Shown here in pieces: positions 4,785 through 27,074 of a stretch of DNA of 32,000 bases. The position numbers were made by a program, and so were the translations under genes. This DNA is from Candidatus Saccharimonadota bacterium (GTDB lineage Archaea > Nanobdellota > Nanobdellia > Pacearchaeales > GW2011-AR1): NCBI GenBank assembly GCA_017609205.1, contig JAFCEL010000001.1, forward strand, positions 360,001 through 392,000, in the 5' to 3' direction. How positions within the stretch are numbered: position 1 is the first letter of the stretch; every line of letters starts with the position of its first letter. A model generated the notes under the pieces. That model made no database searches, was not told the DNA's origin, and saw only the letters and a program-made list of their open reading frames with translations.

Positions 4785-5489
4785 CTATTTAAAGCTAAAG
4801 TTCATATTCTCTTTTTTTGCTTGGTTTTCAATTTTTAGTAGGATTTCCTTTAATTTATTATCTGCTTGTTTGATGTTTTCTGCTTCTGTTTTAATTGAAT
4901 ATCTTCCTGCTGAGATATATCTTACTTCTGCATCTTTTATGTCTGCGAATATTTTTTTAATTTTATTAATTCCTTCAGAGTCTGTTGTGTTCAGGGAGAT
5001 CTCTTTTTTTGTTGTCGCTTTTTTTGGTTTTTGAGAAAGAATTATGTCAAGAATCTTTTGCGCATCTTTTTTTCCAACAAGAGATTCTAGTTTTTTTGGG
5101 TTATCTCTAATCTCTTCGAAAAAATCAAATAATCTCTCTTTTTCAGTTATCTTCTTTATAATTTCCTCGGATTTATCTTTTAATATGGTTTTTAAGATAC
5201 TTACGTAGCTTTTTTCTTGTTTATGTCTTTCTAGGACTTCTGCTTTTTCTTTTTGTGTAACTCTTCTCAGCGAAAGATTTATTTTGCCGTTTTGAATTCT
5301 TAGAACCTTGCATACAATTTTCTTTTTTGGGACGACATAATCTCTTAAGTTTCTTATTCTTCCTGGAGCAATCTCGCTCAAAATAATGCTCCCTTCACCA
5401 TCCCCTTCTATGTTTACAAATACTATTGTTCCAACTATTCTGTCGACAGTGCATAAAACAACATCTCCTTCTTCAAGGTCATATGCCAT
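4785..5489 (-). CDS. eif2a: Translation initiation factor aIF2 alpha subunit (short form)
   Basis: N-terminal S1 fold: EGDVVLCTVDRIVGTIVFVNI...GSIILSEIAPGRIRNLRDYV..KIVCKVLRI..GKINLSLRRV, followed by a helical domain. Adjacent to nop10. Confidence 0.8.
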   Translation of the reverse strand: MAYDLEEGDVVLCTVDRIVGTIVFVNIEGDGEGSIILSEIAPGRIRNLRDYVVPKKKIVCKVLRIQNGKINLSLRRVTQKEKAEVLERHKQEKSYVSILKTILKDKSEEIIKKITEKERLFDFFEEIRDNPKKLESLVGKKDAQKILDIILSQKPKKATTKKEISLNTTDSEGINKIKKIFADIKDAEVRYISAGRYSIKTEAENIKQADNKLKEILLKIENQAKKENMNFSFK

Positions 5490-10944: not shown

Positions 10945-11763
10945 TTATAGTATGTCTAAAGGGCTTTTTATATTTTCTATATCTGTGTTAGCAACATGGG
11001 TATAAACCTGAGTTGTTCTAAGATTTTTGTGCCCTAATAGTTTTTGTATTTTCCTTATATCCACTCCTTGCTCTAATAAATGGGTTGCGAAAGAATGCCT
11101 TAAAACATGGGGCCTTATTTTCCTTCCGAGAGCTTTTTTCGAGCTTTTTTCTAGGATTTTTTCTATACTTTTTGAAGAGTATTTTTTATTTCTGTTTGAT
11201 TCAAACAAGTGGTCTTTTGGAGTATATTGTAAAAGGTATTTAAGAAAATCGTTTTTAATTGATTCAGGGAAAAGGGTTATTCTGTCTTTTTTTCCTTTTC
11301 CTTGTCTAATATAAATTATCTTTCTTTCAATATCAATGTCCTTTGGTTTAAGGTTAGTTAACTCAGAGACTCTTAATCCTGCAGAATAAATTAGTTGCAC
11401 AATTAGCCTATGCTTCAAGTTTTTTATCTCTTTTATTATCTTGGAGATTTCTGTCTTGTTTAATATTTCGGGAATTTTTGATTCTGTTTTGTAATTTGGA
11501 AGTTTAAACTCACTTTGTTTTCCAATGATTTTAAATAATATTCTTAAGGCAGAATATTTTTGTTTTATGTAGCTTGTACTTTCTTTTTTCTCAATACTTT
11601 TTAATAAGTATTTCTTAACATCATCATTTGAGGGGTTATTAGAACTTTTTCTTATAAAATCTTCTATTATTCTTGAGTATGATTTTATAGTTTTCGAAGA
11701 CAAATTTCTTAATCTTAGGTAATTCTCATATTCTTGTTTAATCGAACTTATTTTTTTGTGCAT
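10945..11763 (-). CDS. xerA: Xer-type tyrosine recombinase (XerA-like), candidate integrase of the adjacent cassette array
   Basis: Catalytic series AGLRVSEL (R), GKGKKDR (K), HVLRHSFATH (H-x-x-R), LLGHKNLRTTQVYTHV (H, Y). Only 272 aa. The stop lies 1 nt from the srp54 start. The start faces the attI-like GTTAAAC box. Confidence 0.9.
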   Translation of the reverse strand: MHKKISSIKQEYENYLRLRNLSSKTIKSYSRIIEDFIRKSSNNPSNDDVKKYLLKSIEKKESTSYIKQKYSALRILFKIIGKQSEFKLPNYKTESKIPEILNKTEISKIIKEIKNLKHRLIVQLIYSAGLRVSELTNLKPKDIDIERKIIYIRQGKGKKDRITLFPESIKNDFLKYLLQYTPKDHLFESNRNKKYSSKSIEKILEKSSKKALGRKIRPHVLRHSFATHLLEQGVDIRKIQKLLGHKNLRTTQVYTHVANTDIENIKSPLDIL

Positions 11764-11799
11764 AATCTATTCCATAAAGAGGATTTTATATAATTTGTG

Positions 11800-11829
11800 A
11801 TAGAAGTTCGATTAAAAGGTGTTAAACGA
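11800..11829 (+). other. attI-like insertion point (G|TTAAACGA)
   Basis: GTTAAACGA at 11821-11829, 58 nt upstream of the recombinase start codon. It is the exact reverse complement of TCGTTTAAC (11983-11991) in the first attC-like site. Confidence 0.45.
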
Positions 11830-11984
11830 AATTTTTTGCCCCTATTTTTTTGGGTTTTCTTTTTTTTAGTCTGTCTTCGGCAGAATTGATTTGGGGCAAA
11901 AAACTCTGCGGAAAAATCAAAGATTTTTTCCTTGCCTCGCTGCGCTCTCACTCCACTTCGCTATCGCTTCGTTTCGTTCGGGTC

Positions 11985-12080
11985 GTTTAACAGCGATTAA
12001 GAGGTTCGCTTGTTGCACTTCGCTCTCCCAAATTTCTTCGGCTTCGCCTCAGAAACTTCTCTTAATCGCTCATGTTATCC
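11985..12080 (+). repeat. attC-like site 1
   Basis: R'' GTTTAAC; L'' CGATTAAGAG (11994-12003) is perfectly complementary to L' CTCTTAATCG (12059-12068); 5-nt spacer; G|TTATCC at 12074. Internal C(TTCG)G hairpins. Confidence 0.65.
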
Positions 12081-12104
12081 GAAATGCCGACGAAAACGCA
12101 AGCT

Positions 12105-12113
12105 TTTTAAATA
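12105..12113 (+). promoter_or_regulatory. TATA-box-like element of cassette 2
   Basis: TTTTAAATA ends 20 nt before ATG 12133. Confidence 0.45.
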
Positions 12114-12132
12114 ATCAAATTTTATTTAATTT

Positions 12133-12774
12133 ATGGTTAAAGAAAAATCAAAAAATCTTACGATTTTTATCGCGGTCGTTGTAATATTAGTTTTGGCCAC
12201 TGGTTTTTTAACATATTCTTATACATTAAATCAATTTTCATCCTCACAAGAAGAAACACTTAATTTTTTTAAAGAATATTCTATTGCATTAAATAATATT
12301 CATATCGCTTCTGGTTTTTTAGATATCGCATTATTGAATTTGAATGCAGGAAATTCGTATGTTGAGACTGGCGAATACTATTATGAATTTGCGATAGATT
12401 ATTATGATACTGGAAAAGAACAGGTTTTGGATGCTAAAGAATTACTTAATAAAGCTAAAACAAAATTACAAAACCTGCAAACTAATGCCCCAAATTCTTT
12501 TTTCCAAGAGGATGTCGAAAAGCGAATAGAACAAGCAGATTCTTTAATTTCTGTTAGTAATGATTTATATTCTCTTCTTGATTACCAGAAGCAACAACTT
12601 TACGAAATTAATTATGGTTCTGAATCAAAGGCAACAGAATATTATAATAAATATAATGCCCTTATCCCAGAATTTAATAATAAACTAAAAAAATTAAGTG
12701 AAATCCAAAACCAGATTGATTTAAATTGGGACCAAGATTGGTATCCTACTTTCCAAGAAACAGCGACCGCTTGA
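12133..12774 (+). CDS. Hypothetical membrane-anchored protein (N-terminal TM, helical ectodomain)
   Basis: AT-rich coding-like ORF with hydrophobic LTIFIAVVVILVLATGFL near the N-terminus. I recognise no family motif. Confidence 0.6.
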   Translation: MVKEKSKNLTIFIAVVVILVLATGFLTYSYTLNQFSSSQEETLNFFKEYSIALNNIHIASGFLDIALLNLNAGNSYVETGEYYYEFAIDYYDTGKEQVLDAKELLNKAKTKLQNLQTNAPNSFFQEDVEKRIEQADSLISVSNDLYSLLDYQKQQLYEINYGSESKATEYYNKYNALIPEFNNKLKKLSEIQNQIDLNWDQDWYPTFQETATA

Positions 12775-12859
12775 TTTTTCTTTTCGTCGGCACTCTGCGG
12801 ATTTTCTACGAAAATCCTTGCCCCATTGCATTCTCAAAATCCTTCGGATTTTTCGGGTC

Positions 12860-12954
12860 GGATAACAACGATTTAACGGAAAATCCCTTGCAGGAATTTT
12901 CCCAAATTTCTTCGGCTTCGCCTCAGAAACTTCTCTTAATCGCTCATGTTCGCC
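12860..12954 (+). repeat. attC-like site 2
   Basis: R'' GGATAAC is the reverse complement of the GTTATCC junction at 12074. The right half (12900-12950) is identical over 51 nt to site 1 (12026-12076). G|TTCGCC at 12948. Confidence 0.65.
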
Positions 12955-13080
12955 AAAATTTTCCCTTTGCCCTCCAGAGTCGGGTAAATCCTCACGCTGG
13001 TTTTGAGGTGCTTCCCTTAACGCTCCAATCCGAAATCGGAGGACATCGGATAATATCGCTGATTAAAGGAAATTTGAAAA

Positions 13081-13512
13081 ATGGATAAAGAAATAAAGTT
13101 TGAAGCATTTGACTTGAGAAAAGTAAGACCTCTCTTGTTGAAAATAGCAAAAGAGAAAGGTAAAACTTACGAAGAAGTTAAGAGAGTGTTTTACGAAAAG
13201 ATAGAAATTCCATACGCACCTCAAAGCGTATCGGACAAAGGAAAAACTCACGAGGGTGTTTTGAACACCACTCGTGCCGACTTCGTCGGTCGGCGAACAC
13301 CGAATAAACGGAAAAATGCTTTGGCTTCGCCAACCTGTTTTTTACAGGACGCATTTTTCTCAAATTCTTGCTCCGCAAGAACTTCGTTTATTCTATCCAT
13401 TAGTCGAAATTTAATTTGGTGCAAATTTGCCCGCCCCCTTAAGCGTGTGCTTAAACTCAATTATAATAATCTTTATATATATGAATCAATAACAGTCTTA
13501 TATGCCACTTAG
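13081..13512 (+). CDS. Small hypothetical protein; only the first ~55 codons look coding, the rest reads through attC-like site 3
   Basis: MDKEIKFEAFDLRKVRPLLLKIAKEKGKTYEEVKRVFYEKIEIPY is coding-like. From ~13245 the frame runs through the GC-rich repeat and across the 13399 junction without a stop. Confidence 0.35.
   Translation: MDKEIKFEAFDLRKVRPLLLKIAKEKGKTYEEVKRVFYEKIEIPYAPQSVSDKGKTHEGVLNTTRADFVGRRTPNKRKNALASPTCFLQDAFFSNSCSARTSFILSISRNLIWCKFARPLKRVLKLNYNNLYIYESITVLYAT
13292..13405 (+). repeat. attC-like site 3
   Basis: R'' GGCGAAC is the reverse complement of the GTTCGCC junction at 12948. L'' CGAATAAACG (13301-13310) pairs with L' CGTTTATTC (13385-13393). Inner stem GAAAAATGC/GCATTTTTC encloses two hairpins. 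Junction A|TTAGTC at 13399. Confidence 0.6.
13472..13479 (+). promoter_or_regulatory. TATA-box-like element of cassette 4
   Basis: TTTATATA ends 22 nt before ATG 13502. Confidence 0.45.
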
Positions 13513-13954
13513 ACAATATGCAGAATGGGTTGATGCACCCAGAACAAAAACTTATTTTCAAGAAGGTAGAGCAGGAATTTTAAGATTAGATGCTCATAAA
13601 GAGTTTTCTCCTGAGCATACATTAGATTTAGTTATTGCTAAAACAACTCTTTATGAAGATTGCAATATCTCCTCTAAACTCCTTCCTCTAGTTGTTGCAA
13701 TGTGGGAGAGGAAAGGAGATGAAAGACTTAATGACTTCTATTCTTTTGATAATAATGGCGTCTGCTTATCTCATGGTTATTCAAGAATGAAAAATGGTCA
13801 ACGAGTTGTAGATGAACAACACGATACAGATATAAGCAGACTTATTGAATATGGAGAAGTCATTAAAGATTTAATAGGAGATTATCCAATTCCTGCTCAA
13901 TTAGCAATGCACACGACAGTTATTGATTTAAGACAAAATACCTTAAGAGAATAA
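13502..13954 (+). CDS. Hypothetical protein
   Basis: 150-aa ORF that fills cassette 4 (13400-14177), with a TATA box at the standard distance. No motif recognised. Confidence 0.6.
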   Translation: MPLRQYAEWVDAPRTKTYFQEGRAGILRLDAHKEFSPEHTLDLVIAKTTLYEDCNISSKLLPLVVAMWERKGDERLNDFYSFDNNGVCLSHGYSRMKNGQRVVDEQHDTDISRLIEYGEVIKDLIGDYPIPAQLAMHTTVIDLRQNTLRE

Positions 13955-14058
13955 CGCACATGCTTTTTTCTTTTCCCACCCAATAAGCACCAAATTAAAC
14001 TCTTCGCCAGCCCTTCGGGACATTGCATTCTGGCTCGGTTTTTTCTACGAAAAAACTC

Positions 14059-14183
14059 TACTAACAGCGATTAAGACTCCACTCACTTGCAGTTCGCTAC
14101 GCCCTTCGGTTTTGTGGGTTGCCTCAAAACCTACGGGGAAATAAATCCTTCGGATTTACTTCTCTTAATCGCATATGTTGCTT
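14059..14183 (+). repeat. attC-like site 4
   Basis: R'' TACTAAC (5/7 complementary to the 13399 junction). L'' CGATTAAGAC pairs with L' CTCTTAATCG. Several C(TTCG)G / CTACG hairpins. G|TTGCTT at 14177. Confidence 0.55.
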
Positions 14184-14316
14184 GGCTTCGCCCAAATTTT
14201 TTCTTAATTATAACGGGCAGGGGCTTTTTAGTCCTTCGGACATATTTTTTATTCTAAAATAGAAATATTTAAATACTATTAAATTAATATTTTAATAATA
14301 TTCAGAAGATGATAAA

Positions 14317-14484
14317 ATGGTAAAAATTCAAAAAACAAATACGGGTCAATCAATAATAACCATCCCTCGAAGTATTATGAGGGCTACTGGCTGGGGAAGA
14401 GGGACCGAATTAATGCCTTATGTGGATGAAGAAGGAAAACTTATTCTGAAAGAGATAAAAATTAAAAAGAGGATGAGAAGATGA
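14317..14484 (+). CDS. AbrB/SpoVT/MazE-type swapped-hairpin DNA-binding protein (55 aa, below the ORF-track cut-off)
   Basis: Hand translation: MVKIQKTNTGQSIITIPRSIMRATGWGRGTELMPYVDEEGKLILKEIKIKKRMRR*. Its stop overlaps the dcm ATG (ATGA at 14481-14484). Confidence 0.6.
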   Translation: MVKIQKTNTGQSIITIPRSIMRATGWGRGTELMPYVDEEGKLILKEIKIKKRMRR

Positions 14485-15521
14485 ACAGTAAAAATCCAAT
14501 TGCAATAAGTTTATTCTCTGGCATGGGAGGACTTGACTTAGGACTAAAGAAAGCAGGCTATAAAATTGCTGTTCAACTTGATATAGATCACCATTGTATT
14601 GAAACGCTTAAAACCAATTGGCCAAGAGTCCCAAAAATACAAGAAGACATAGCATTTCTTACTGCAAGAAAGATTTTATCAAAAGCCAACCTTAGTAAAA
14701 GAAAAGTTGATCTTATCGCTGGAGGACCAAGTTGTCAACCATTCTCACGATCAAATGAAGGAAAACGAAAGGGGGTTAAAGATAGAAGAGGCAAACTTAT
14801 TTTTGAGTTTGCTAGGTTAGTAGACGAGATTCGACCCAAAGCATTTATTATGGAAAATGTTGCAGGACTGATATCTTCAAATAAAGGGAAAGATTTCAAG
14901 AAATTACTCAATTTTTATAATAAAATTAATTATCACATTCAATATCAAGTTCTAAATGCAGCTGAATATGGACTTCCACAGAAAAGAAAAAGATTATTTC
15001 TTGTCGGCTTTAGAAAGAAAACAAACTTTAATTTTCCAAATCCAACTCATGGCGAGGGAGATGGCTTAGCACCTTTCGTAACAAGCGGAGAAGTATTAAG
15101 AGATTTAGATGATGGTATAATCCATGATAGTACCGTTTCAATAGGTGGAAAACATGGTCATCTTATTAACGATATCCCCCCTGGAATGAATTATATTTAT
15201 TATACTGCAGAATATAACCCAAAAAATGCTATCTTTCGTAATAGATCAAAGTTCTGGACATTTTTATTAAAATTAGATCCTAAACAGCCCTCTACAACAA
15301 TCCAAGCAAGTCCTTGGAGTCATGTAGGTCCCTTCCACTGGAATAATAGACGACTAACTATTGCAGAAATTAAGCGGCTCCAAGGAATACCTGATAACTA
15401 CTTCGTATCGGGTGCCAGAGAAAAAGAATATACCTCACCAGCATGGAGACAGATAGGTGATGCTGTTCCTCCATTGCTTTCTTATGTTCTGGGGAAAGAA
15501 ATTAAAAAGATAATTTATTGA
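14481..15521 (+). CDS. dcm: DNA (cytosine-5)-methyltransferase
   Basis: Motif I FSGMGG, motif IV GGPSCQPFS, motif VI ENV, motif VIII QKRKRLF, motif X GDAVPP. Confidence 0.92.
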   Translation: MNSKNPIAISLFSGMGGLDLGLKKAGYKIAVQLDIDHHCIETLKTNWPRVPKIQEDIAFLTARKILSKANLSKRKVDLIAGGPSCQPFSRSNEGKRKGVKDRRGKLIFEFARLVDEIRPKAFIMENVAGLISSNKGKDFKKLLNFYNKINYHIQYQVLNAAEYGLPQKRKRLFLVGFRKKTNFNFPNPTHGEGDGLAPFVTSGEVLRDLDDGIIHDSTVSIGGKHGHLINDIPPGMNYIYYTAEYNPKNAIFRNRSKFWTFLLKLDPKQPSTTIQASPWSHVGPFHWNNRRLTIAEIKRLQGIPDNYFVSGAREKEYTSPAWRQIGDAVPPLLSYVLGKEIKKIIY

Positions 15522-17422
15522 TCACCATACTTATCCAAATATTCTTTAATTCTTTCATTTGCATTAGGAAATTTAACGGGCAGAGGGATATTCGTTAGTC
15601 CTGTAGCATCATAGCTAAACAGCATCCATTGTCCTTTTGTAAATGTTAGAGTTCTCTGTATCATCTCTTTAGATGCTCCGAAAGCTTTACCAATAGTGTC
15701 CCTATCATACTCTCTTGGTAATTTTGATAACAAGAAAGTATGAGGTTGAGCCAGTATAGACGTATCAAGATAGGCTACTCTTTGTGTTGCTAATGCAAGA
15801 CCTAGACCAAACTTTCTACCTCTTCTCGCAAGTAAAGTGCTCGCACTTCTTGATCGTTGGTAACTTTCGCCTCCTGATTGTGGTATGAATTCATCAGCTT
15901 CATCGTAAAGGAAGAGCACATGCGGATCAATTTCTCCACTTGTTCTTCTCCTTCTGAATGCATAGTTTACCATATGACTTGAAAAATCTCTCAAGTCATC
16001 GTCACGATTGCTCTGAACAATTATAAGTGCAGGTTTTGACTTATCGGTAAACGTTCGGTAGATTTGATCCATAGAAAGTATGGCCTTCTCAGGCAATGGT
16101 TCTTCTTTTGTTGCACTGAGATATCCTCGTACTACCTCTTGCATCCCGGAAAGTATTATTCTCCCTGTATCATTGAGTCTTACTGTCCGTTCAGTTGGTG
16201 CTCTGGGAGCAGTTCCCATTAAACTTTGCTGAACAGATTCTCCTCCTTCTTGTCTGGTATAGTCTACCAAGGCATTGTCTTGAAGTGCCTGGCCTATATC
16301 GGCATCTAATGCTTGAAGTTGTTGCTCAGAAACAGGATCAACACCTGAACCTCGCAGGTGTTCATCAATCATTCTACGAATATGAAACTCATTATTCCTT
16401 GAACCACTTTGTATTCTTTCACTGAGTTCACTCCTAAGATCACTAATTGTAGGGTTTGTAGAACCTGTACTGAATATTCTTATTTTATTTGCTTTCAGGA
16501 TTTCTTTGAAAAGTGGCAAATACTTGTCTTGATAAGGAATTAACTCTTTAGGTAGGAGGAGGGTTCTGACAATTGATTCAGCAGCTTCGTTTAACTTGGA
16601 TTCATCACCACGTATATAATCCTCTACTGCTTGTGAACCTGGCAAAGAGTCTTCTGTTACACATAAGATATATGCTTCATCAATCTTATGAATCAAATCA
16701 ATTAATAAGCCACTATACTCAGTCATAAGATCAAAGAGTACAACCTTATTTTCTTTAGCAACTGAAATAAGGTTACTTATAAGATTACTTAGCAGATTAG
16801 ATTTACCAGCTCCTGTGAAACCAAAGACTCCAAAGTGAGTTCTCAGTAAATCTTCTGTGCTTAGTTTGACACCAACTTTATCATTCAATATCAAAGTACA
16901 AGGTTCAATAGTCGGAACTTTTTCAGAGAGCAGCCCTTTATTAACAATTTGGTTTATTTGTTCATCTGTAAGTAAATGGGCGTCTTCACCTATCATAGGA
17001 AGACTCTCATCAACGTCAATAGATGCTTTATTATCTTGAGTAATAGTTAGTTGCAATCCTGTTGATATCGCTTCTGCCTTAATTTTAGTTGTTTGTTCAA
17101 TAGGTTCTTCTTGTTCCCAATCGACTTTAGCATTCTTTGCTGCTTCTATTACAAATCCTGGAAAGGCTCTTTCAGTGTCTCTTGATGAAACTCCGAGAGC
17201 ATAATGTTTAGGGAACACTGAAACAAGTTCAAGAATGCTGAAAGTGTTGTCCCCATTAACTCCACTATAATTTCTTACAGCGACAAAACTCCCTACTTTG
17301 ATTTCGCCGACAAACATTTTTGTATATGGAAACCATACAGCATAACTTAACTCCGCAGTACTTTCTGTGTCCATTGACACAACGACTCCTTTTGGACTAT
17401 CTTTAAAGTATTTCATTTTCAT
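15515..17422 (-). CDS. HerA/DUF87-like hexameric ATPase
   Basis: N-terminal barrel-like region (GEIKVGSFVAVRN), Walker A HFGVFGFTGAGKSNLL, Walker B VLFLYDEADEFIP. The 3' end overlaps the dcm 3' end by 7 nt. Confidence 0.7.
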   Translation of the reverse strand: MKMKYFKDSPKGVVVSMDTESTAELSYAVWFPYTKMFVGEIKVGSFVAVRNYSGVNGDNTFSILELVSVFPKHYALGVSSRDTERAFPGFVIEAAKNAKVDWEQEEPIEQTTKIKAEAISTGLQLTITQDNKASIDVDESLPMIGEDAHLLTDEQINQIVNKGLLSEKVPTIEPCTLILNDKVGVKLSTEDLLRTHFGVFGFTGAGKSNLLSNLISNLISVAKENKVVLFDLMTEYSGLLIDLIHKIDEAYILCVTEDSLPGSQAVEDYIRGDESKLNEAAESIVRTLLLPKELIPYQDKYLPLFKEILKANKIRIFSTGSTNPTISDLRSELSERIQSGSRNNEFHIRRMIDEHLRGSGVDPVSEQQLQALDADIGQALQDNALVDYTRQEGGESVQQSLMGTAPRAPTERTVRLNDTGRIILSGMQEVVRGYLSATKEEPLPEKAILSMDQIYRTFTDKSKPALIIVQSNRDDDLRDFSSHMVNYAFRRRRTSGEIDPHVLFLYDEADEFIPQSGGESYQRSRSASTLLARRGRKFGLGLALATQRVAYLDTSILAQPHTFLLSKLPREYDRDTIGKAFGASKEMIQRTLTFTKGQWMLFSYDATGLTNIPLPVKFPNANERIKEYLDKYGDQ

Positions 17423-17428
17423 ACCCTC

Positions 17429-19243
17429 CTATCGGAAACTATCACGTATTTCCCTGAATGTTTTTGACAACGGTCTTGATTTGAATGCCCATTCGCTTGA
17501 CTGTAATAAACCAATTACTCTTCTTTTAAGAGATTTTGCACCCCAGTCAGCTTGATGAAGTGGATCAGGGTATCCTAATGCTTCGGGGAAGTGATTACGA
17601 ACCAAAACAGCTAAAAGATACATTGTGAGTGTTTGCAGACGAGGTGTTCCAGTTGTTTCATCATATAGTAATGGTTGTATCTCACCGAACCAATCTGTCT
17701 TTATTTTAAAGTTTGCTGAATCCTTATCATCCCATCCAGGATATGCTAATCTATCTATAAAAAGTGCATGTGAAGAAATATTTCTATCTGGAGATAAGAA
17801 GAATTGAGCAAGTGATCTTAAAAATATACGTTCTGGCCTAGTGACTTCTCCTCTACTTGTATCGTAACCCTTACTTTTCCAAGTTTTAGATTTTTCATCA
17901 TATTCGCTGTGCATTGTCATAAAGCATGAATCAAAATCGTAGGTGCACCAAGGAGTATTAAGATTCAAATCTATATTTGGAAGAAGTTCGGCAATTGCTC
18001 TATCTGTAAGAGGTAATGAGAAATGTTTTATTTGATCGCCCCCTCTTACTTGATTTATTGAGCCTAAGAAGTTTCTATAAAAGAAGCGAGACATAGAATC
18101 TTTTACAATACCTATCAAAAGTATCTTTCTTTCCCAACATCTCTCGACCAAGGCTCTTAATCCAATGCCCGCGAGAAACATGATATCTCTAGGGGAAAAA
18201 TATTCTAATTCATCCGAATCACGTAACTTGTAACATACTCCGTGAGGGTCTTTCTTTTTGAATAAATTTTCGCAGATACTCTCAAATATTCTTTGTGACT
18301 TCTTCCACGAAGTCCTTGGGTCTACTGTGAACTCGAATGTTTCCGTTGAAGGATCATATTTCCCTGCTTTTTTGTCTTGTAAGAACTTTGCACCAGCCTT
18401 GAAATTTTCTAATGGGAATTTAGGGCAGTCTTTTGCAGAGATCTTCCTTCTCTGTTTCCATGTTGCTTCAGCAATTAATCTGAAGTGTGGCTGGAATTTT
18501 TTAGTTGATGGGATATCTAAAATTTCATTAAATGGATGTGCAAGAGAAACTTCCATGTCGGCTTCTGTTAAAAACTCACCTTGAAAATCTCCTCTACCTA
18601 GAGTTAGTGATGACGAACTGAAACTGGTATTTCCCATAACACCGCCTATACTGTTATCAATTAGAAGAACACGGGGGCATTCAACTGCGGAAGATTTTGC
18701 TAAATCATAAGCTAAATATATCTCTGCTAATTGCATTATTTTTGTGTGTAAAGATGAAACTTGAGCTATTTCAGAATCTGATCTAAATATTGGAGTTTCG
18801 TTTGCTTCGTCTTGTTCTGTAACGCCATGCATTACGTCTGGTGGGATTGGAACAAATGCAACCATTGATACATCTCTGTTGAGTTCCCATCTTTGGTATC
18901 TTATTTTTCCTCCTGGCTCTGAAAAGGAGATCGTTCCTTTAGAACCATAAGCTCCTCCGTAAAAAGAAATGAAGTTTGCCGATTCTTCTTTGTGACAACT
19001 TGCATCTATGGCTACAAAAGATATCTCGGACGTTTCAAAGAAATTCTCTGCCAAACGCTTAATTTCAAGTCTTTTAATTTGATCCTTGAAATCATCTGAG
19101 TATGATCTCACAAAGTGTTTAATTAATTCATCATACCTTTTCCTAAGTGATTTAGAGTGAAATTTAAGACGAGTCTCATACTCAGCTTGTGAACTTTCGA
19201 GACTTTTCCGGTATTGGTCATATACTTTTGAAATCTCTGACAT
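17429..19243 (-). CDS. NurA-like nuclease (large, 604 aa)
   Basis: Ordered motifs FVAIDAS, VLLIDNSIGG and LIGIVKDSMSR resemble the NurA series (xDGS, xDGSL, GxSKxS). It sits 6 nt upstream of the HerA-like gene. Confidence 0.5.
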   Translation of the reverse strand: MSEISKVYDQYRKSLESSQAEYETRLKFHSKSLRKRYDELIKHFVRSYSDDFKDQIKRLEIKRLAENFFETSEISFVAIDASCHKEESANFISFYGGAYGSKGTISFSEPGGKIRYQRWELNRDVSMVAFVPIPPDVMHGVTEQDEANETPIFRSDSEIAQVSSLHTKIMQLAEIYLAYDLAKSSAVECPRVLLIDNSIGGVMGNTSFSSSSLTLGRGDFQGEFLTEADMEVSLAHPFNEILDIPSTKKFQPHFRLIAEATWKQRRKISAKDCPKFPLENFKAGAKFLQDKKAGKYDPSTETFEFTVDPRTSWKKSQRIFESICENLFKKKDPHGVCYKLRDSDELEYFSPRDIMFLAGIGLRALVERCWERKILLIGIVKDSMSRFFYRNFLGSINQVRGGDQIKHFSLPLTDRAIAELLPNIDLNLNTPWCTYDFDSCFMTMHSEYDEKSKTWKSKGYDTSRGEVTRPERIFLRSLAQFFLSPDRNISSHALFIDRLAYPGWDDKDSANFKIKTDWFGEIQPLLYDETTGTPRLQTLTMYLLAVLVRNHFPEALGYPDPLHQADWGAKSLKRRVIGLLQSSEWAFKSRPLSKTFREIRDSFR

Positions 19244-19412
19244 CTTTAACCTCGCCCTCGGTTTTTATCTGATTTTTATTTAATTCCTCAACCATAAAAT
19301 TTTCAAACTGCTTTGACAGAATAATGCCTTTTTGCTCGCAGTATTTCCTGTATTCTTCGTAAACTTTTTCTTCCACACTAAGCGAAACAGTCTTTTTTGC
19401 CATATTCATCAA
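19218..19412 (-). CDS. Ribbon-helix-helix (CopG/Arc-like) small DNA-binding protein
   Basis: KKTVSLSVEEKVYEEYRKYCEQKGIILSKQFENFMVEEL has a beta-strand plus two-helix pattern. First gene of the RHH-NurA-HerA operon, overlapping the NurA-like start. Confidence 0.5.
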   Translation of the reverse strand: MMNMAKKTVSLSVEEKVYEEYRKYCEQKGIILSKQFENFMVEELNKNQIKTEGEVKDVRDFKSI

Positions 19413-19604
19413 CCCATTTATGTATATATAAGCTTAAATGTAATTCTTTATAAATTTAACGACTTTGTTCCTTAAATTTCTCACCCACACTTTGCTCCCG
19501 CCAGTTCTTTTTCAGAAAAAGAACCAAAAACAAAAGCCCCTGCCCTGTCCTTCGGACATATTGCCTGCCTTCGGCAGTAATTTATATCAATTAAGAAAAA
19601 ACTA

Positions 19605-19668
19605 CGGCAACAAAAAATTTTCGGCGCCCTCGCGACTTTGATTTTTTCGGCTTCGCCGAACGTTGCAC
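19605..19668 (+). repeat. Possible short attC-like site (weak)
   Basis: CGGCAAC ... TTCGGCG / CGCCGAA ... G|TTGCAC. GCAAC/GTTGC would pair, and it partly matches the TTGCTT cassette start at 14178. Confidence 0.3.
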
Positions 19669-19699
19669 TAAAAATCAATCCTTCCCTTCGGTCAGGAGA

Positions 19700-19826
19700 A
19701 ACTAACAGCGATTTAACGGTTCCGCTCCGTTGCACTCGCTCACCCATATTTTTTCCTACGGAAAAAACACTCGAGGTCACTTCGTTCCACTCGAGCCCTT
19801 CGGGTCGCTTAATGCGGATGTTAAGT
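19700..19826 (+). repeat. attC-like site 5
   Basis: R'' AACTAAC, AG spacer, CGATTTAACGG. Internal hairpins TTTTTTCC-TAC-GGAAAAAA and CTCGAG..CTCGAG. G|TTAAGT at 19820. The L arms are poorly complementary (mosaic). Confidence 0.5.
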
Positions 19827-20534
19827 TCAATTTGCCCCAGAGTCCTTAGGAAGTTGCGGTAATGCTTTAACATATCGTGATACAACATCACAAAAAGAAT
19901 TCTCATCACTTGAAGAATTAATACGATGGAAATGAATTTTAGGATCTTGAGTTATGCCAAAAACTTCATATTTTCTTTCTCCCGTGGGAGGAAAACCAAA
20001 AACTTGTAAAGGAATTCCTCTATATTTGGAATAAGCAAAACTTAGTGGACATTCATACCCTGATTGAACTAAAAGATCCTTAATTGGTTTCGCTGATACT
20101 GGAACTCTGTAGGGAATTATGTTGATATTCTCCCAAGCATGTGCAATATCTTTTCCTAATTCACCTGAAGTATTATGATTCAAATCGAATTCCAATAAGT
20201 ATACTAAATCTCTATTCACAGGATCAAGTTCCCGTGGAGATATTTTTCTTACACTATGATTTGGACCTTCTGATAAAAAATCAGGCACATGATAATCAGG
20301 AACTGCAATGATCCCATATCTTCCAGCAACATCTCCAGTAGTTTGAGGAAACTCTATTGCAATAATTCCTTCTTTTAATGGAATTTGACCAAAAAATGGA
20401 ACACTAACCATTGTTTGTATTATTGAAGTAGGAGTCATCAATTTATCCATAATCATCTTATCTGAATATGCAAAAAAATATCTTTGGTATTTTGGACCGC
20501 TTCTTTTGGTTCTACTTTTCTTCTTCTTTGGCAT
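19827..20534 (-). CDS. Hypothetical protein (start moved to MPKKKK)
   Basis: The first 25 codons of the track ORF lie in the repeat. ATG 20534 has a TATA box 20 nt upstream. No family recognised. Confidence 0.5.
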   Translation of the reverse strand: MPKKKKSRTKRSGPKYQRYFFAYSDKMIMDKLMTPTSIIQTMVSVPFFGQIPLKEGIIAIEFPQTTGDVAGRYGIIAVPDYHVPDFLSEGPNHSVRKISPRELDPVNRDLVYLLEFDLNHNTSGELGKDIAHAWENINIIPYRVPVSAKPIKDLLVQSGYECPLSFAYSKYRGIPLQVFGFPPTGERKYEVFGITQDPKIHFHRINSSSDENSFCDVVSRYVKALPQLPKDSGAN

Positions 20535-20554
20535 AAATGATGGGAATTCTACAA

Positions 20555-20564
20555 TATTTAAAAA
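20555..20564 (-). promoter_or_regulatory. TATA-box-like element for the reversed ORF
   Basis: The minus strand reads TTTTTAAATA, 20 nt before ATG 20534. Confidence 0.4.
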
Positions 20565-20625
20565 TGTACGGACTCTGGGGCAAACTCTGCGGACGCAGTT
20601 TTCCCACACTGCGTATGGGAAAAGA

Positions 20626-20745
20626 ACTTAACAGGGCTTAAAGGGTTCGAAACGACCGGCTTCGCCTATTTTGCCAAGCAAAATTCGTTTCTCTCCCAAA
20701 TTTTTTGTCTGCGACAAAAAACTTCCCTTAAGCCCGATGTTAAGT
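20626..20745 (+). repeat. attC-like site 6
   Basis: R'' ACTTAAC is the reverse complement of the GTTAAGT junction at 19820. L'' GGGCTTAAAGGG pairs with L' CCCTTAAGCCC (one bulged base). G|TTAAGT at 20739. Confidence 0.6.
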
Positions 20746-20805
20746 TCAATTGAGTTCTCGCTTAATATTAAGAAACGGGAAGGGGGCTTAGTCCCTGCGG
20801 GACAG

Positions 20806-20935
20806 ATAGTTTCGGCTTCGCCTCGCAGAAAAATTTCTCTTAACCGACCAACAAAAAAAGAAAACCAAATTTTCTTTCAGAAAATTCTGTCTAACATTGG
20901 TTAAGAAGTTCGCTTTCGCTCTCCCAAATTTTTCT
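20806..20935 (+). repeat. Degenerate right-half plus left-half attC-like modules
   Basis: TTTCGGCTTCGCCTC..CTCTTAACCGA (right-half-like, no GTT), then an A-rich 45 nt, then GTCTAAC-AT-TGGTTAAGAAG-TTCGCTTTCGCTCTCCCAAATTT (left-half-like). Homologous to 23040-23140. Confidence 0.4.
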
Positions 20936-20964
20936 AAGAGTTTGAGGCTGAAAAAAAGAAGTAT

Positions 20965-20995: not shown

Positions 20996-21907
20996 ATGGC
21001 GTTGTTCAAAATAAATAATTCAAAAGTTGAAAAGTTATCAATTACTGCAATTAGTAAAGAAAAAGACATTCAAAAATTATTTGAAGATAATTTATTGACT
21101 ATTCTTAATGTTGATTTCTTAGCTAGTGAATATAGTACAAGCTTTGGAGGAAGAATAGATACGCTTGGAATTGATAAAAATGGTTCTCCTGTTATTATTG
21201 AATATAAAAGAAACCAAAACGATAATGTAATCAACCAAGGATTATCATATCTAAGATGGCTTTTAGACCATAAAGCTGATTTTGAAATTTTATGTAGAAA
21301 TAGAAACATTAACATTGAGATTGATTGGAGTTCTCCAAGAGTTATATGCGTTGCAGAAAGCTATAATAAATTTGATTTAGATACAGTAGAAATCTTGCCA
21401 ATTAAAATTGAACTTTTGAAATATAGAATATATGAGAATAATATTTTATTGGTTGATTCAGAAACTCAAAGAGCTGTTAGAATTAGTACCTCTAAAATAT
21501 ATCAAAAAGGAAAGAAAGATAAAGAAACAATAAGATTACAAAAAGAATACACAATAGATATGCACCTAAAAATTGCCTCAAAACAAATAAAAGAATTATT
21601 TATGCGTTTAAAAGAAATGATTTCAGGTCTTGACGAGGCAATTATTGAAGAAGCAAAAGCAAAGTATATCGCTTATAAACTAACTACCAATTTTGTAGAT
21701 ATTGTAATCCAAAAGAATTCCATAAAAGCTTTCTTGAATGTTCCAAGTGGCAAATTAAATGACCCTTACGGCATTGCAAGGGACTTAACAAAACCAAAAC
21801 CTATCGGACATTGGGGTAACGGGGATTATGAAGTTATTGTAAAAAATGAAGATGAATTAAATAAATTATTTGAACTGATTAAACAATCTTATAATTATAA
21901 TAAATAA
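20996..21907 (+). CDS. PD-(D/E)xK nuclease-fold protein (DUF91/NucS-like N-terminus, DUF5655-like C-terminus)
   Basis: EKDIQKLFEDNL...GGRIDTLGIDKNGSPVIIEYKRN..VINQGLSYL gives a D...ExK layout. The C-terminal KYIAYK...FLNV region resembles DUF5655 as I recall it. Confidence 0.5.
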   Translation: MALFKINNSKVEKLSITAISKEKDIQKLFEDNLLTILNVDFLASEYSTSFGGRIDTLGIDKNGSPVIIEYKRNQNDNVINQGLSYLRWLLDHKADFEILCRNRNINIEIDWSSPRVICVAESYNKFDLDTVEILPIKIELLKYRIYENNILLVDSETQRAVRISTSKIYQKGKKDKETIRLQKEYTIDMHLKIASKQIKELFMRLKEMISGLDEAIIEEAKAKYIAYKLTTNFVDIVIQKNSIKAFLNVPSGKLNDPYGIARDLTKPKPIGHWGNGDYEVIVKNEDELNKLFELIKQSYNYNK

Positions 21908-22678: not shown

Positions 22679-22842
22679 CAGCCCCCAACTCTAATTTTTA
22701 AAAGATACAACGGCACTCTCTCTTATTAATATATTTTCTGACGGCTTCCCGCCGTCCCAGAGTTCGTTTTAACTTCTCCGTTCGCTACGCTCACTCCGAC
22801 CACGCCTTGCAGGCTCTCACTCCATTTCATTCCGTTCGGGAC

Positions 22843-22929
22843 GCCTAACAGCCGTTAAAAGAGAAATTCCTGCGAAATTTCTCCAAATTTTTCCCTTCGG
22901 GAAAAACTTCTTTTAACGGCATATTAGTT
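22843..22929 (+). repeat. attC-like site 7
   Basis: R'' GCCTAAC (the classical inverse-core sequence). L'' GCCGTTAAAAG is perfectly complementary to L' CTTTTAACGGC. TTTCCC-TTCG-GGAAA hairpin. Junction A|TTAGTT at 22923. Confidence 0.55.
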
Positions 22930-23039
22930 TCAATTGCAAATTCTCTAAATTGTTGAGTTGAAAAATAGGAGAGGACACTTTAAAACCCCCGACCACCCGC
23001 CCCTAAATTGAGAGGGGTTGCTTATTAAAAAGAAAAATC

Positions 23040-23140
23040 CTTCGCTTAACCTCAACAAAACAAAAAAGAAAAAATAAAATTGCTTCGCAACTTTATCTAA
23101 CATTGGTTAAGCGGTTTCGCTTTGCTACACCCAAAGATTT
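23040..23140 (+). repeat. Degenerate right-half plus left-half attC-like modules (paralog of 20806-20935)
   Basis: CGCTTAACC (23043-23051), then an A-rich stretch, then ATCTAAC-AT-TGGTTAAGCG (GGTTAAGCG is the reverse complement of CGCTTAACC). Confidence 0.4.
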
Positions 23141-23160
23141 TTCTAACGGGCGGCTTTTAT

Positions 23161-24330
23161 TTAGTATCCTGCATAACTTTGTGTTAGAACTAAATTTCCA
23201 CTAGAATCTCTTAAAAATAAAGTATCTCCATTATTATTCCAAATTGCCGCATAATTCCCTGATGTTCTTCCCCAATATAATGCAGAATCTGTATTTGTTC
23301 CTGTTCCTGTATAAAGTGTGAATGTTGCTCCGCCTTCAAATACAAATGATAGAATTGTATAAATATGAGAAGCAGTTTCATCTTTAATTGTCCAACCAGT
23401 CATATCGATAGAATAAGAGCATCTGTTCCCGAAAGTAACATATTCATCATTTAAATTATAGTTATCATTTCCAGCCGCATTAAAATGGAAATTAATTATA
23501 TAGATACATTGATCTTGAATATAATTTATCTCTTCAGTTTTCCATAAACAACCTTCATTTTGCTTTGCCTCGTTTTCTGCTTGTTCAAAGAGAGATGAAT
23601 ATTTTGTATTTGAGCCATATTCATACTTATGGGCAAGTCCTAATCTTACCATTTCCAGATTTACAAATGTATCATCAACATAAACATATCTTAATAGTCT
23701 TCCATATTGGTCTTTATCATTGACATCTGACTCTAAAGTTACTTGTTTTCCTAATACCATATTTTGTAATTCTTCTTTTGATTCTTCATAACATTTTCCA
23801 TTAACCTCGGGGGCATTTATTCCAATCAACCTAACTTCTTCTCCATTAGACAATTGGATTGAATCGCCATCTAGAACATATGAAACAGTTAATGTAGTGG
23901 TTTGTGGTTCTGAATTACATGCACCATCAAAGCAACCATATGGACACTTGTAATTTAATGTTCCCGTTCCAGATGATGTACAATAATGTTCCCGTACATA
24001 ATCTTTGTAAGCACCTGTACTACATTCATCATATTCTTTTGTCCCATCACTATGAGTAATATAACCTTTTGTATAATAATCTTTACCGCCATCAGAATCT
24101 GTGCACTTTACAGTTGTAGTTTGAGATATTGTTGTGTCTTGTTCGTAATATTGTTGCTGATAATAATCTTCTTGTTGCTGTTGTTGTAGTTGGTCATAGT
24201 ATTGATCATTATACAAATCATCGTACATTGCATGGCGATAATAAGAATTTCTAATAGCACTTGTCATAATCATTAAAAATAGGATTATCCAAAACCAAGT
24301 CCACCAACTACTTCCTTTCTTATTCATCAT
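23161..24330 (-). CDS. Secreted/anchored thermonuclease (SNase) fused to a lamin-tail domain
   Basis: N-terminal TM WWTWFWIILFLMIMT, Q/Y-rich tract, Cys-rich module. SNase core VLDGDSI..VRLIGINAPE..YGRLLRYV..LGLA. C-terminal LTD-like NAAGND..NDEYV..WTIKD..GD.L.L.D..G. Confidence 0.85.
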   Translation of the reverse strand: MMNKKGSSWWTWFWIILFLMIMTSAIRNSYYRHAMYDDLYNDQYYDQLQQQQQEDYYQQQYYEQDTTISQTTTVKCTDSDGGKDYYTKGYITHSDGTKEYDECSTGAYKDYVREHYCTSSGTGTLNYKCPYGCFDGACNSEPQTTTLTVSYVLDGDSIQLSNGEEVRLIGINAPEVNGKCYEESKEELQNMVLGKQVTLESDVNDKDQYGRLLRYVYVDDTFVNLEMVRLGLAHKYEYGSNTKYSSLFEQAENEAKQNEGCLWKTEEINYIQDQCIYIINFHFNAAGNDNYNLNDEYVTFGNRCSYSIDMTGWTIKDETASHIYTILSFVFEGGATFTLYTGTGTNTDSALYWGRTSGNYAAIWNNNGDTLFLRDSSGNLVLTQSYAGY

Positions 24331-24352
24331 AATTGAAGTGATAAGTTTTAAA

Positions 24353-24364
24353 CTTATAAATATT
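24353..24364 (-). promoter_or_regulatory. TATA-box-like element for the SNase gene
   Basis: The minus strand reads AATATTTATAAG, ~22 nt before ATG 24330. Confidence 0.4.
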
Positions 24365-24501
24365 ATGTTCTAAAAGCCCGCCCTCAGTCCTTCGGACAAT
24401 TTGTGAAACTTCGTTTTAGATTTATTTAGAAATAATCTTTTTTCCGCCGCCCAAAAATGCAATATAGAAATCCTTAAAAACTTTGATTAATACAAAATTA
24501 T

Positions 24502-24720
24502 ATGGAAACATACAATACAAAAACTGCAATATATGATGTCTTCAGTGCAAATATGACTATGGATACAGATGCAGAAGTTTATCGTGGAAGCGAACTTTCT
24601 GCCTGTAAAAGTTGTCAATGTAATTGTAGATTATGCCTTGGAGGAAAAGCTCCAGAAGGAACAGAAGTTTTTTGTAAGGCAGATGCTGAAGGCGTTTTAG
24701 AAAAACTTTTAGCTGCTTAA
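24502..24720 (+). CDS. Candidate RiPP precursor peptide (six Cys, SCIFF/ranthipeptide-like core)
   Basis: 72 aa. Core SACKSCQCNCRLCLGG...FCK. Lies immediately upstream of the HExxH peptidase, rSAM/SPASM and PqqD-like genes. Confidence 0.5.
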   Translation: METYNTKTAIYDVFSANMTMDTDAEVYRGSELSACKSCQCNCRLCLGGKAPEGTEVFCKADAEGVLEKLLAA

Positions 24721-24899
24721 TCAAGTATCTTTTTACTTAATGAGTCATAATTAAAGCATATAATTTTAATAAAAATTTTGCAAAAATTGAAATCCCTAAA
24801 TTTGAGATAAAAATCGTTACTTCGCGAAAAGAATTTGAAGATATTTGGGGTTCTAAAACTTCAGATTATGTTTCTGCTTTTGCTAAAGATGACAATATT

Positions 24900-26415: not shown

Positions 26416-26662
26416 TTTTGTAATTTTTAAAAGTCCTTATTTAAGGTATAGAAAAGAAGAATTCGGAGGAATTGCTAAATTAAATCTAAAAACTTTTATT
26501 ATTAATAAAATTCAATACAATTTAATTAATAAAATTCAAAAAGTTTTAGTTTATGGAGAATTAAATCAAATAGAGCAAAAAGTCGCAGATAAACTGATTG
26601 AAAACAAACTTCTTCTAAAAGTAGACTTAGAAAGAGCAAAAGAACTTGGATTTAAAGAATAA
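26405..26662 (+). CDS. Possible PqqD-like RiPP recognition element protein
   Basis: 85 aa, overlaps the rSAM stop by 11 nt. Size and position are typical of PqqD/RRE partners. I see no strong motif. Confidence 0.35.
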   Translation: MKNNFVIFKSPYLRYRKEEFGGIAKLNLKTFIINKIQYNLINKIQKVLVYGELNQIEQKVADKLIENKLLLKVDLERAKELGFKE

Positions 26663-27052: not shown

Positions 27053-27074
27053 ACCATCTATTACTTTAAATAAA

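Follow-up and report, generated by a model that had tools for sequence, protein, structure and literature searches.

A 32,000-nucleotide stretch of archaeal DNA (contig JAFCEL010000001.1, positions 360,001-392,000; below, the window) raises the question of what kind of element is repeated, over many kilobases, next to a gene for a XerA-type tyrosine recombinase. From 11.8 kb to at least 31.5 kb, divergent from xerA, unrelated open reading frames (ORFs) alternate with these elements; the region 11985-14183 contains the first four of them, denoted sites A-D. An earlier reading, made from the letters alone (referred to as the sequence-only reading), noted covarying stems in this region and left open whether they represent a single-stranded DNA site similar to the attC sites of integrons, a structured RNA, or both. 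The observations discussed below favor the first alternative. In our view the elements are, with a probability of about 70%, attC-like fold-back DNA recombination sites that bound mobile cassettes, i.e., the region would be an integron-like array based on a XerA-type recombinase and a dif-like insertion site, attI.

The window contains ten complete sites of 95-134 nucleotides (nt), denoted A, B, C, D, E, F, H, K, L and M, together with two partial copies. They share a common layout, nnnnnnAAC-A-L''(11)-hairpin 1-C(C/T)CAAAT-hairpin 2-(A)ACTT-L'(11)-3 or 4 nt-G|TTnnnnnnAAT, where the outer boxes, R'' and R', pair with each other, as do the inner boxes, L'' and L'. The 5' end is ..TAAC (or nAAC) and the 3' end is GTT in all sites, replaced by ATT in 3/40, which agrees with the canonical R''/R' core (RYYYAAC / GTTRRRY); here, the R box reaches 9 nt. 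The L helix is mostly a perfect duplex of 11 base pairs (bp), and the one bulge seen is a single A in the type-2 site F. Upon folding, the interior of a site forms a three-way junction, and the R helix comprises 9-10 bp once the proper tail is attached. All six arm pairs quoted in the sequence-only reading were recovered in place, and the elements are, as it had also remarked, richer in GC than their surroundings (0.43 vs 0.33 in the remaining array). The asymmetry of the spacers, given there as 2 nt on the 5' side and 3-5 nt on the 3' side, was confirmed, but the lengths had to be revised: the G of the "AG" usually pairs, which leaves 1 nt (A) on the 5' side and 3-4 nt (GAT, ATAT, TCAT) on the 3' side. 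The TTAA that was thought to be invariant is found in 16 of 40 sites, the others having TTTA, ATAA or TTAT, and only the central T:A pair is constant (40/40).

Inverted-repeat scans anchored on AAC...GTT were too noisy in the AT-rich DNA and were replaced by a covariance model (R1), which was built from the ten window sites and was given the R and L helices only. In the window and 10 related loci (11 loci; the genome set) R1 identified 41 sites. A metagenome scan with a narrow pattern matched at least 120 stretches, and in the 80 listed R1 found 187 sites, of which the 147 best distinct ones were used (the metagenome set). As a control of specificity, R1 gave 0 matches in 703 kb of unrelated viral contigs; matches to the pattern in these contigs were dismissed as chance. 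In the genome set, 10 of the 11 pairs of the L helix show changes on both sides and 82% of the cells are paired; the covariation score is 0.328, as compared to 0.126 after shuffling (0/500 shuffles reach the observed value) and at most 0.10 when the partner is slid. In the metagenome set 94% are paired, and the score is 0.431 vs 0.118 after shuffling, with slid controls at or below 0.083. The complementarity of the covarying L arms, to which the sequence-only reading had drawn attention, is thus far above chance. Many L sequences coexist (8 distinct central 4-mers and many more full arms). The L''/L' pairing is kept by structure rather than by sequence.

Complementarity is also found between neighboring sites. 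The 6 nt that follow GTT in one site complement the 6 nt that precede AAC in the next, at 5/6 positions or better, in 17/31 adjacent pairs, as compared to 79/1569 non-adjacent pairs and 2/40 comparisons within a site (Fisher p 5.5e-14); in the metagenome set the numbers are 58/76 for adjacent pairs vs 1967/21613 (p 2e-44). The match at the junction is 9 nt long (GTTnnnnnn) and ends there. This relation places the cassette boundary at G|TT with the R' tail in the next cassette, which is also the rule for integron cassettes; when circularized, the cassette would pair this tail with its own R''. In the window the chain holds from attI through A, B and C to D, and from E to F, where the tail of E (GTTAAGTTC) is the exact reverse complement of the R'' of F (GAACTTAAC). 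The boundary is also seen upon comparison with a related locus (L002): the cassette start TTCGCCAAAATTTTCCCTTTGCCCTCCAG.GTCGGGTAAATCCTCA is found after site B in the window (12949 on) and after the conserved xerA-adjacent attI sequence in L002, the homology starts at TG|TT, and the sequences upstream are unrelated.

The first cassettes, all on the plus strand, illustrate this organization. Cassette 0 (11822-12074) has no ORF and consists of an "extension" (11893-11982) and site A; its first 9 nt after the G (TTAAACGA..) complement the R'' of site A (TCGTTTAAC). Cassette 1 (12075-12948) combines site B with an ORF at 12133-12774, the product of which (213 amino acids (aa), with an N-terminal hydrophobic stretch as judged by eye) gave no Pfam, NCBIfam or PADLOC match; the tail of the R' of A (TTATCCGA) complements the R'' of B (TCGGATAAC) at 6/6 positions. 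In cassette 2 (12949-13399) a conserved 5' element of ~130 nt (12949-13080) precedes an ORF from 13081 and site C, and cassette 3 (13400-14177) holds an ORF at 13502-13954 (150 aa, no family match) and site D; the tails of B and C complement the R'' of C and D, respectively, at 5/6 positions each. The next cassette, of 5.6 kb (14178-19820), is closed by site E and carries AbrB/MazE-like, Dcm and HerA-like genes as well as a gene for a 604-aa protein. Here, PADLOC matches were obtained for the Dcm methylase (MTase_II, 2.5e-84) and the HerA-type ATPase (HerA, 2.4e-68), with none for the 604-aa protein, and a 303-aa protein encoded in another cassette (20996-21907) matches the PADLOC candidate PDC-S18 (4.7e-98). 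To judge from these matches, the cargo looks like anti-phage defense. TATA-like boxes were noted, by eye, before several of the cassette ORFs. Among the cassette ORFs scanned in the window, i.e., those that precede the later ORFs at 23161-31873, no recombinase turned up; the related array L019 includes a gene for a rve-family integrase. Between genomes the cargo is nearly all unrelated, with three weak-to-moderate matches among all array ORFs, and two loci with common flanking ftsY-like and xerA genes, L001 and L019, yet have arrays of 1.1 kb and 8.8 kb, respectively.

The enzyme encoded beside the array is a protein of 272 aa (10945-11763, minus strand), beyond which SRP54 is found. With 234.5 bits against the NCBIfam model XerA_Arch (NF040815, cut-off 220) it is an archaeal XerA, and it is collinear end to end with P. 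abyssi XerA (PDB 4a8e, E 2e-48; residues 10-262, no large gaps). In contrast, the integron-integrase model TIGR02249 gave 179.5 bits (cut-off 265), split in two pieces, and in the alignment with VchIntIA (2a3v) residues 167-196 of the query face residues 172-243 of the chain, i.e., ~42 aa are missing around patch III, where IntI has its specific additional domain. An exact look-up of the recombinase gave no match. In nine archaeal loci with XerA orthologues (47-79% identical), five of which keep the xerA-SRP54 synteny, 29/29 sites are found upstream of xerA, as in the window, and on the strand opposite to the gene, and the same is true of 16/16 sites in nine metagenomic loci with a more distant XerA (39-45% identical). 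The array is thus upstream of, and divergent from, xerA in all 18 loci where both were seen; in loci with several sites these are all on one strand (38/38), and R1 gave no match in the core-gene parts of the loci. In the literature, of which our coverage is incomplete, we found no description of a XerA linked to such arrays.

The elements could alternatively be ordinary integron attC sites, i.e., a cluster of attC sites lacking integron integrases (CALIN), served by a canonical IntI elsewhere or in trans, with the XerA as a coincidental neighbor. Archaeal integrons have been published, including clusters without IntI reported by IntegronFinder in metagenome-assembled genomes (MAGs) of Pacearchaeales and Woesearchaeales (Ghaly et al. 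2022, PMC9668308), and the elements resemble attC sites in their ..TAAC-A start and GTT end, in the logic of the R/L boxes and in having the boundary at G|TT. However, the extra domain is present in the six archaeal IntIs of that study, and the attC sites tested there were of the bacterial type with a ~5-nt spacer (PMC9668308). A model (R2) built from nine canonical attC sites (aadA7 and eight archaeal ones), as a stand-in for the IntegronFinder model, matched none of the sites discussed here, either with default filters over 10 sources or with filters off on the window. Furthermore, canonical attC sites have a central spacer of ~5 nt, unpaired on both sides, and single extrahelical bases; here, the spacer is 1 nt vs 3-4 nt, single extrahelical bases are missing, and the interior is a three-way junction. 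Together with the 18/18 linkage to xerA and a dif-like attI, these differences leave only a slight chance that the elements are ordinary attC sites.

The putative insertion site of the array is found at 11805-11832 (plus strand) and has the sequence AGTTCGATTAA-AAGGTG-TTAAACGAAAT, i.e., two 11-nt arms, which are inverted repeats matching at 9/11 positions, around a 6-nt spacer, with a probable crossover between 11821 and 11822 (G|TT). A putative TATA-like box, TTTTATATAA (11784-11793), between xerA and attI is kept as TTTATATA upstream of xerA orthologues. The left arm and spacer of attI are conserved beside xerA in 10 loci, and the conservation ends directly after the TT that follows the G. 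The same 11-6-11 form is found in the dif site of P. abyssi (ATTGGATATAA-TCGGCC-TTATATCTAAA), where XerA cuts at the ends of the spacer (PMC2958812), and attI agrees with this site in form and in part of its sequence. Linked xerA/dif modules occur in some archaea, and attI may be the chromosomal dif site, too.

The consensus of attI, AgTtCGaTTAA-AAG.TG-TTa..t.cAAT, reappears in the sites. Their 3' arm consists of ACTTCtcTtAA and TTA.at.cAAT, separated by 8 nt (27 sites) or 9 nt (9 sites), and on the opposite arm there are exactly 6 nt from TTAA to the crossover, ending in TG as in attI. Comparison of these sequences suggests that the folded sites mimic the attI/dif duplex. Two other schemes were dropped. 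Equating the left arm of attI with L'' places the L box in the wrong orientation (the consistent map is ACTT plus the first 7 nt of L'), and a strict "TTAA-N6-TTAA" rule fails since attI and the sites also use ATAA, TAAA and TTAT. In loci with a distant XerA (39-45%; L163, L170, L193, L194, L197 and L200) the sequence before ..TG|TT beside xerA is often a short palindrome, for example TTTAACGAA-ATGAG-TTCGTTAAA-TAGGTG|TT, so that attI differs on its left side between lineages of the recombinase.

The two strands of a site do not fold equally well. In L helices with at least 8/11 Watson-Crick pairs, top-strand A.C mismatches outnumber G.T ones by 16 to 1 in the genome set (binomial p 3e-4) and by 41 to 7 in the metagenome set (p 6e-7), so that the wobbles fall on the bottom strand; by eye, and without a count, most sites also show a conserved A.C mismatch (G.T on the bottom strand) at pair 3 of hairpin 2. 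When folding energies are calculated with DNA parameters, the bottom strand comes out as the more stable one in 36/38 sites, by 2.4 kcal/mol on average, and after subtraction of the contribution of base composition the advantage persists (Wilcoxon p 7e-5). The favored strand is antisense to most cassette ORFs. The loops, too, point to the bottom DNA strand. The TTCG and TAC loops described in the sequence-only reading exist, but they are not of the C(UUCG)G type: among the TTCG sequences of 40 sites (n = 78) a stem of at least 3 bp is found in the tetraloop register in 1 case and in the triloop register in 23. Among triloops on perfect stems of 4 bp or more (n = 36), 21 have the loop TTC (15), TGC (5) or TAC (1), and 20 are closed by a C-G pair. 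On the bottom strand these read C-GAA-G, T-GCA-A and C-GTA-G, i.e., d(GNA) loops, which together with a C-G closing pair form exceptionally stable DNA mini-hairpins (PMC3201870, PMC13037366). The strand-specific, attC-like DNA site that the sequence-only reading had put forward is supported, and extends to a platform of recombinase, attI and cassettes.

The same data bear on the proposal that the elements are structured RNA, i.e., a new non-coding RNA family, or a 3' stabilizer, terminator or insulator of the cassette transcripts, instead of or beside a role of the DNA. Such a function would fit the GC-rich conserved hairpins within AT-rich DNA, the covarying stems and the position of sites after most plus-strand ORFs, and terminator-like stems with a T-run are found 5 times in 11700-14400 vs 2.1 expected. 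However, by wobble pairs and energy alike the sense RNA of the cassettes would be the worse-folding strand (the bottom strand is better in 37/38 sites also with RNA parameters, and the mismatches on the sense strand are A.C), and the loops are in the wrong register for cUUCGg. A search against Rfam, suggested along with the RNA proposal, gave only the tRNA-Gln at gathering score in the window and nothing at E <= 1 in 11700-14400. The strand of the sites is kept even beside ORFs on the opposite strand (15515-20609). The complementarity between an R' tail and the next R'' has no explanation in an RNA function, nor does such a function explain the fixed place beside xerA and attI. We therefore regard the RNA proposal as unsupported and improbable, although a secondary role of the RNA is conceivable.

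All sites in the window are on the plus strand, and they differ in how closely they agree with R1. Site A (11983-12085; 98.7 bits) is composed of R'' (11983-11991), the spacer A, L'' (11993-12003), ACTT (12055-12058), L' (12059-12069), TCAT, the G at 12074 and the right arm (12075-12085), and has a perfect 11-bp L helix and the three-way junction fold. Site B (12858-12959; 70.3 bits) is a hybrid, where L'' (ACGATTTAACG) mismatches L' (CTCTTAATCGC) and the arm part pairs at 4/7 positions; in its 3' half, a stretch of 60 nt (repeat D9) shares 95% identity with the 3' half of site A. In site C (13290-13410; 63.9 bits), with L'' CCGAATAAACG and L' CGTTTATTCTA, the arm part pairs at 7/7 positions and the G at the crossover (13399) is replaced by A. 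Site D is located at 14057-14188 (61.9 bits), followed by E (19698-19831; 50.7 bits, a hybrid), F (20624-20750; 64 bits), H (22841-22934; 58.5 bits, with the L helix paired at 4/4 and 7/7 positions), K (30005-30107; 59.2 bits, a hybrid), L (30765-30890; 75.7 bits, a hybrid) and M (31356-31451; 59.6 bits). The partial site G (20889-20930; 23.7 bits, E 0.004) has the 5' half only (R''-L''-...CCCAAAT).

In its interior (14062-14172), site D has an identity of 97% to L021:8061-8171 and of 94% to L019:5367-5477, although the recombinases of these loci are 58% (L021) and 67% (L019) identical to the XerA of the window. Such near-identity across genomes, the multiple copies with sub-families, and the partial copies G and I would also be found with non-autonomous repeats of the MITE (miniature inverted-repeat transposable element) or REP (repetitive extragenic palindrome) type that have another mode of spread and happen to collect in a variable region. 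Such repeats would not be expected in a single orientation on a single side of xerA, nor to obey the complementarity rule between neighboring sites; none is found elsewhere in the core-gene parts of the loci, and no target-site duplications were noticed, although no systematic search was made. Taken together, the elements are very improbably repeats of this kind, the least probable of the alternatives considered.

A number of observations weigh against fold-back sites in an integron-like array. About a quarter of the sites (in the window B, E, K and L) are hybrids, i.e., L'' and L' are of different types, which a strict integron model does not predict. In a few cases the L' box is chimeric exactly at the arm/spacer boundary (L019:3858, CTCTTAA|GCCC; L022:3667, CTCAAAA|CCCC), which is the second canonical position of Xer cleavage; these boxes could reflect a second exchange point or reactions between duplexes. 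The boundary rule fails at the distal junctions D to E, F to G, J to K, K to L and L to M. About half of the energy advantage of the bottom strand is base composition. The alignments were fitted to a structure that was imposed by the analyst, and the metagenome pattern fixes CCCAAAT, AACTTC, TTAA and GATGTT, including part of L'. The extension upstream of R'', described earlier as conserved, is present but only semi-conserved, with CTCTGCG at four window sites (A, B, F and L) and again at 31489, and TTCGGG(A/T/G)CG at four sites (A, B, H and L) plus one copy within site E; it has no place in the scheme and is a weak point. Finally, as a duplex the 3' arm of a site is a dif-like sequence with a spacer of 8-9 bp and would thus be compatible with a reaction between duplexes.

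The last point leads to a further alternative, where XerA recombines the segment L'-spacer-R' in double-stranded form, as in pdif modules, and L''/R'' is a second inverted site or a regulatory palindrome. The sequence ACTTCnnTTAA-N8/9-TTAnnnnnAAT does contain both arms as a duplex, and the hybrids and the L' boxes that are chimeric at the arm/spacer boundary also speak for this alternative. However, in one genome with one adjacent recombinase many L sequences stay complementary to their partners, which is needless for the binding of a duplex; a spacer of 8-9 bp vs 6 bp at attI makes a full exchange of both strands unlikely, the 6-nt spacer being present only in the fold; and the wobbles are strand-biased. 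Recombination of plain duplex sites therefore appears unlikely, to about the same degree as the RNA proposal. A second crossover at the arm/spacer boundary, hinted at by the chimeric boxes, was considered and not retained: where the pairing of the arm and spacer parts of L was scored, both parts match in 21 cases, the spacer only in 7, the arm only in 4 and neither in 6, counts that are too weak for a claim.

For fold-back sites the following mechanism can be proposed. Each site most likely acts as self-folded single-stranded DNA, with the bottom strand favored. Pairing of R'' with R' and of L'' with L', together with the base of hairpin 2 (ACTT/AAAT), would rebuild a duplex copy of the 11-6-11 dif-like site with a left arm ACTTCnnTTAA, a right arm TTAnnnnnAAT and a spacer of 6 nt on one arm, where the 2-3 extra nt on the other arm would form a bulge, with the result that the two strands differ. 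The base of hairpin 2 would provide the left arm with its outer 4 bp, which would explain why CCCAAAT and ACTT are conserved. Provided that the recombinase recognizes the arm by its ends (A.TTC...TTAA), pairing is all that is required of the middle and the spacer, which would explain the covariation in L. The GC-rich triloop hairpins (C-GAA-G and T-GCA-A on the bottom strand) presumably stabilize the fold. The G|TT would be the boundary between spacer and right arm, where the bottom strand is cut in Xer sites, and XerA, as the probable acting enzyme on a single-stranded substrate, would exchange one strand only at this point, the partners being either attI and a folded site or two of the sites. 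By analogy with integron attC x attI recombination and with integration of the CTX phage at dif, replication would then resolve the product.

The array thus resembles several known systems, without being identical to any of them. As in integrons, a divergent recombinase gene and an adjacent attI are found beside unrelated cassettes, each ending in an imperfect palindromic site where the R''(..AAC)/R'(GTT..) and L''/L' boxes are variable yet complementary, with a G|TT crossover, a bottom-strand bias and cargo that includes defense-type genes. Unlike in integrons, the recombinase is of the XerA type without the IntI-specific domain, attI is dif-like (11-6-11), the R box is 9 bp, the three-way junction with CCCAAAT/ACTT is conserved, and putative TATA-like boxes precede several ORFs. 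The attP(+) of the CTX phage, an IMEX (integrative mobile element exploiting Xer), is folded single-stranded DNA that mimics dif and is integrated by the XerCD of the host (PMC5357621). Here, a host Xer recombinase, a dif-type target, tandem arrays that would result from successive insertions, and an incoming one-strand fold-back of ~100-150 nt that would rebuild a dif-like duplex with unpaired spacer bases are shared features. The cassettes may likewise encode no recombinase of their own, to judge from the ORFs scanned in the window, although the array of L019 has the rve-family gene mentioned above, and integration would be by XerA. In contrast to the CTX phage, the cassettes are of single-gene scale rather than phages, many site variants coexist, one recombinase (XerA) takes the place of XerC and XerD, the host is an archaeon, and the array adjoins the xer gene.

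Archaeal XerA/dif systems for the resolution of chromosome dimers (Cortez et al. 2010, PMC2958812; Serre et al. 2013, PMC3646895) have a recombinase of the same equivalog family and the same kind of site, with 11-nt inverted arms and a 6-nt spacer, and in Sulfolobales dif is close to xerA. P. abyssi XerA also binds, more weakly, an unrelated att site, which a 2021 review called stem-looped. The known dif sites are, unlike attI here, single and without cassette arrays. A further parallel is offered by bacteria. In the pdif modules of Acinetobacter plasmids Xer-type sites (XerC/D) bound small movable gene modules, as the sites bound cassettes here, but the pdif sites are plain duplexes of 28 bp whose orientation alternates. 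To our knowledge they lack both a covarying fold-back partner and a single attI beside a xer gene.

Some further observations concern the sites and their surroundings. The segments 20827-20937 and 23031-23146 share 76% identity and represent an element, either permuted or partial, in which an L'-like box ~45 nt 5' of R''-AT-L''-...CCCAAAT pairs with that L'' and no proper 3' half follows; the arm pair 23043/23105 of the sequence-only reading belongs to the second copy. By eye, a site-like sequence is seen at 26839-26988 (site J: GTTTAAC-AA-CAATGTT ... AACATTC-TTT-GTTCGGA, with a long divergent interior), which R1 does not match and which may be a degenerate site or one of a different class. 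In the extension before site F (20577-20625) the helices ACGCAGT..ACTGCGT and TTTTCCCA..TGGGAAAA overlap, so a pseudoknot is possible; the extensions of sites A and B carry GGCA..CTCTGCGG-hairpin-..TGCC instead. A contig labelled Caldisericales bacterium (WFZA01000028; L004) has, at 4905-4993, one good site of the same layout, TCTAAC-A-GAGCGTATCTG ... CCAAAAT..ACTT-CAGATACGCTC-AAAAC-GTTAGTCGCAAT. This site is located downstream of a recombinase gene with the same orientation, the product of which shares 41% identity with the XerA of the window; a relative in bacteria, wrong binning of the contig and a mobile element are all possible explanations.

The ~130-nt non-coding element at the start of cassette 2 (12949-13080) recurs at L002:11-143, L017:2311-2394, L019:5941-6026 and, in L003, near attI. 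It has nested hairpins and a dif-like stretch (..ATAACATCGCTGATTAAACGAAATT in relatives), immediately follows attI in three genomes and an attC-like site in two, and gave no match in Rfam. A repeat of 84 nt, 95% identical, is found at 20741-20824 and 31437-31520; its copies, at sites F and M, begin at the crossover or 5 nt past it and resemble a duplicated cassette start without an ORF, although there is an offset of 5 nt between the two junctions. For the same organism there is a public contig (JGI 3300033141, Ga0366833_1032160; L024), which is 100% identical to the window over 13213-20742 and ends at site F. As compared to the window this contig is without 40 nt within xerA (11138-11177) and 25 nt at the start of the cassette-2 ORF (13066-13090), and it has 70 additional nt at 13212/13213, which carry the stop codon of the cassette-2 ORF; in the window, where these 70 nt are missing, the ORF therefore reads through site C. 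The differences are due to either assembly error or population variation. A look-up of the 150-aa protein of cassette 3 returned solely a contig of the same organism, and no shuffling of cassettes at the population level is therefore visible. The window as a whole is AT-rich archaeal DNA (GC 0.33), and outside the array it holds SRP54, a putative Bud32-type kinase and tRNA-Gln, as well as a putative aIF2-alpha gene and a DHH/RecJ-like gene, named from sequence or Pfam matches on syntenic orthologues in related loci.

If this picture is correct, the logic of the integron, i.e., one recombinase, one insertion site and stacked cassettes that are known by the shape of their DNA, would run without the IntI-specific domain. 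In its wider form, the proposal is that the XerA of DPANN archaea (Pacearchaeota/Woesearchaeota-type) and its adjacent dif-like site double as an integron, where each cassette brings its own single-stranded, fold-back mimic of dif, is captured at dif and becomes part of a stack, with no involvement of that domain; this wider form is put forward tentatively, at odds a little short of even. A Xer-type enzyme at a dif-like site would then suffice, which bears on how integrons evolved from Xer recombinases, and such an integron free of IntI would possibly be a living model of that origin. The same mechanism may account for attC-like clusters without IntI, perhaps including those reported in DPANN MAGs. 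The system would be widespread, as at least 120 metagenome stretches match one narrow pattern, and if the IntegronFinder model also misses the sites, as the model from nine attC sites does, current surveys undercount such arrays. One small recombinase and oligonucleotide substrates would make a simple system to test. For the very small genomes of DPANN archaea, such an array would be a hotspot of gene gain, with cargo that here comprises the methylase/HerA and PDC-S18 defense-type genes.

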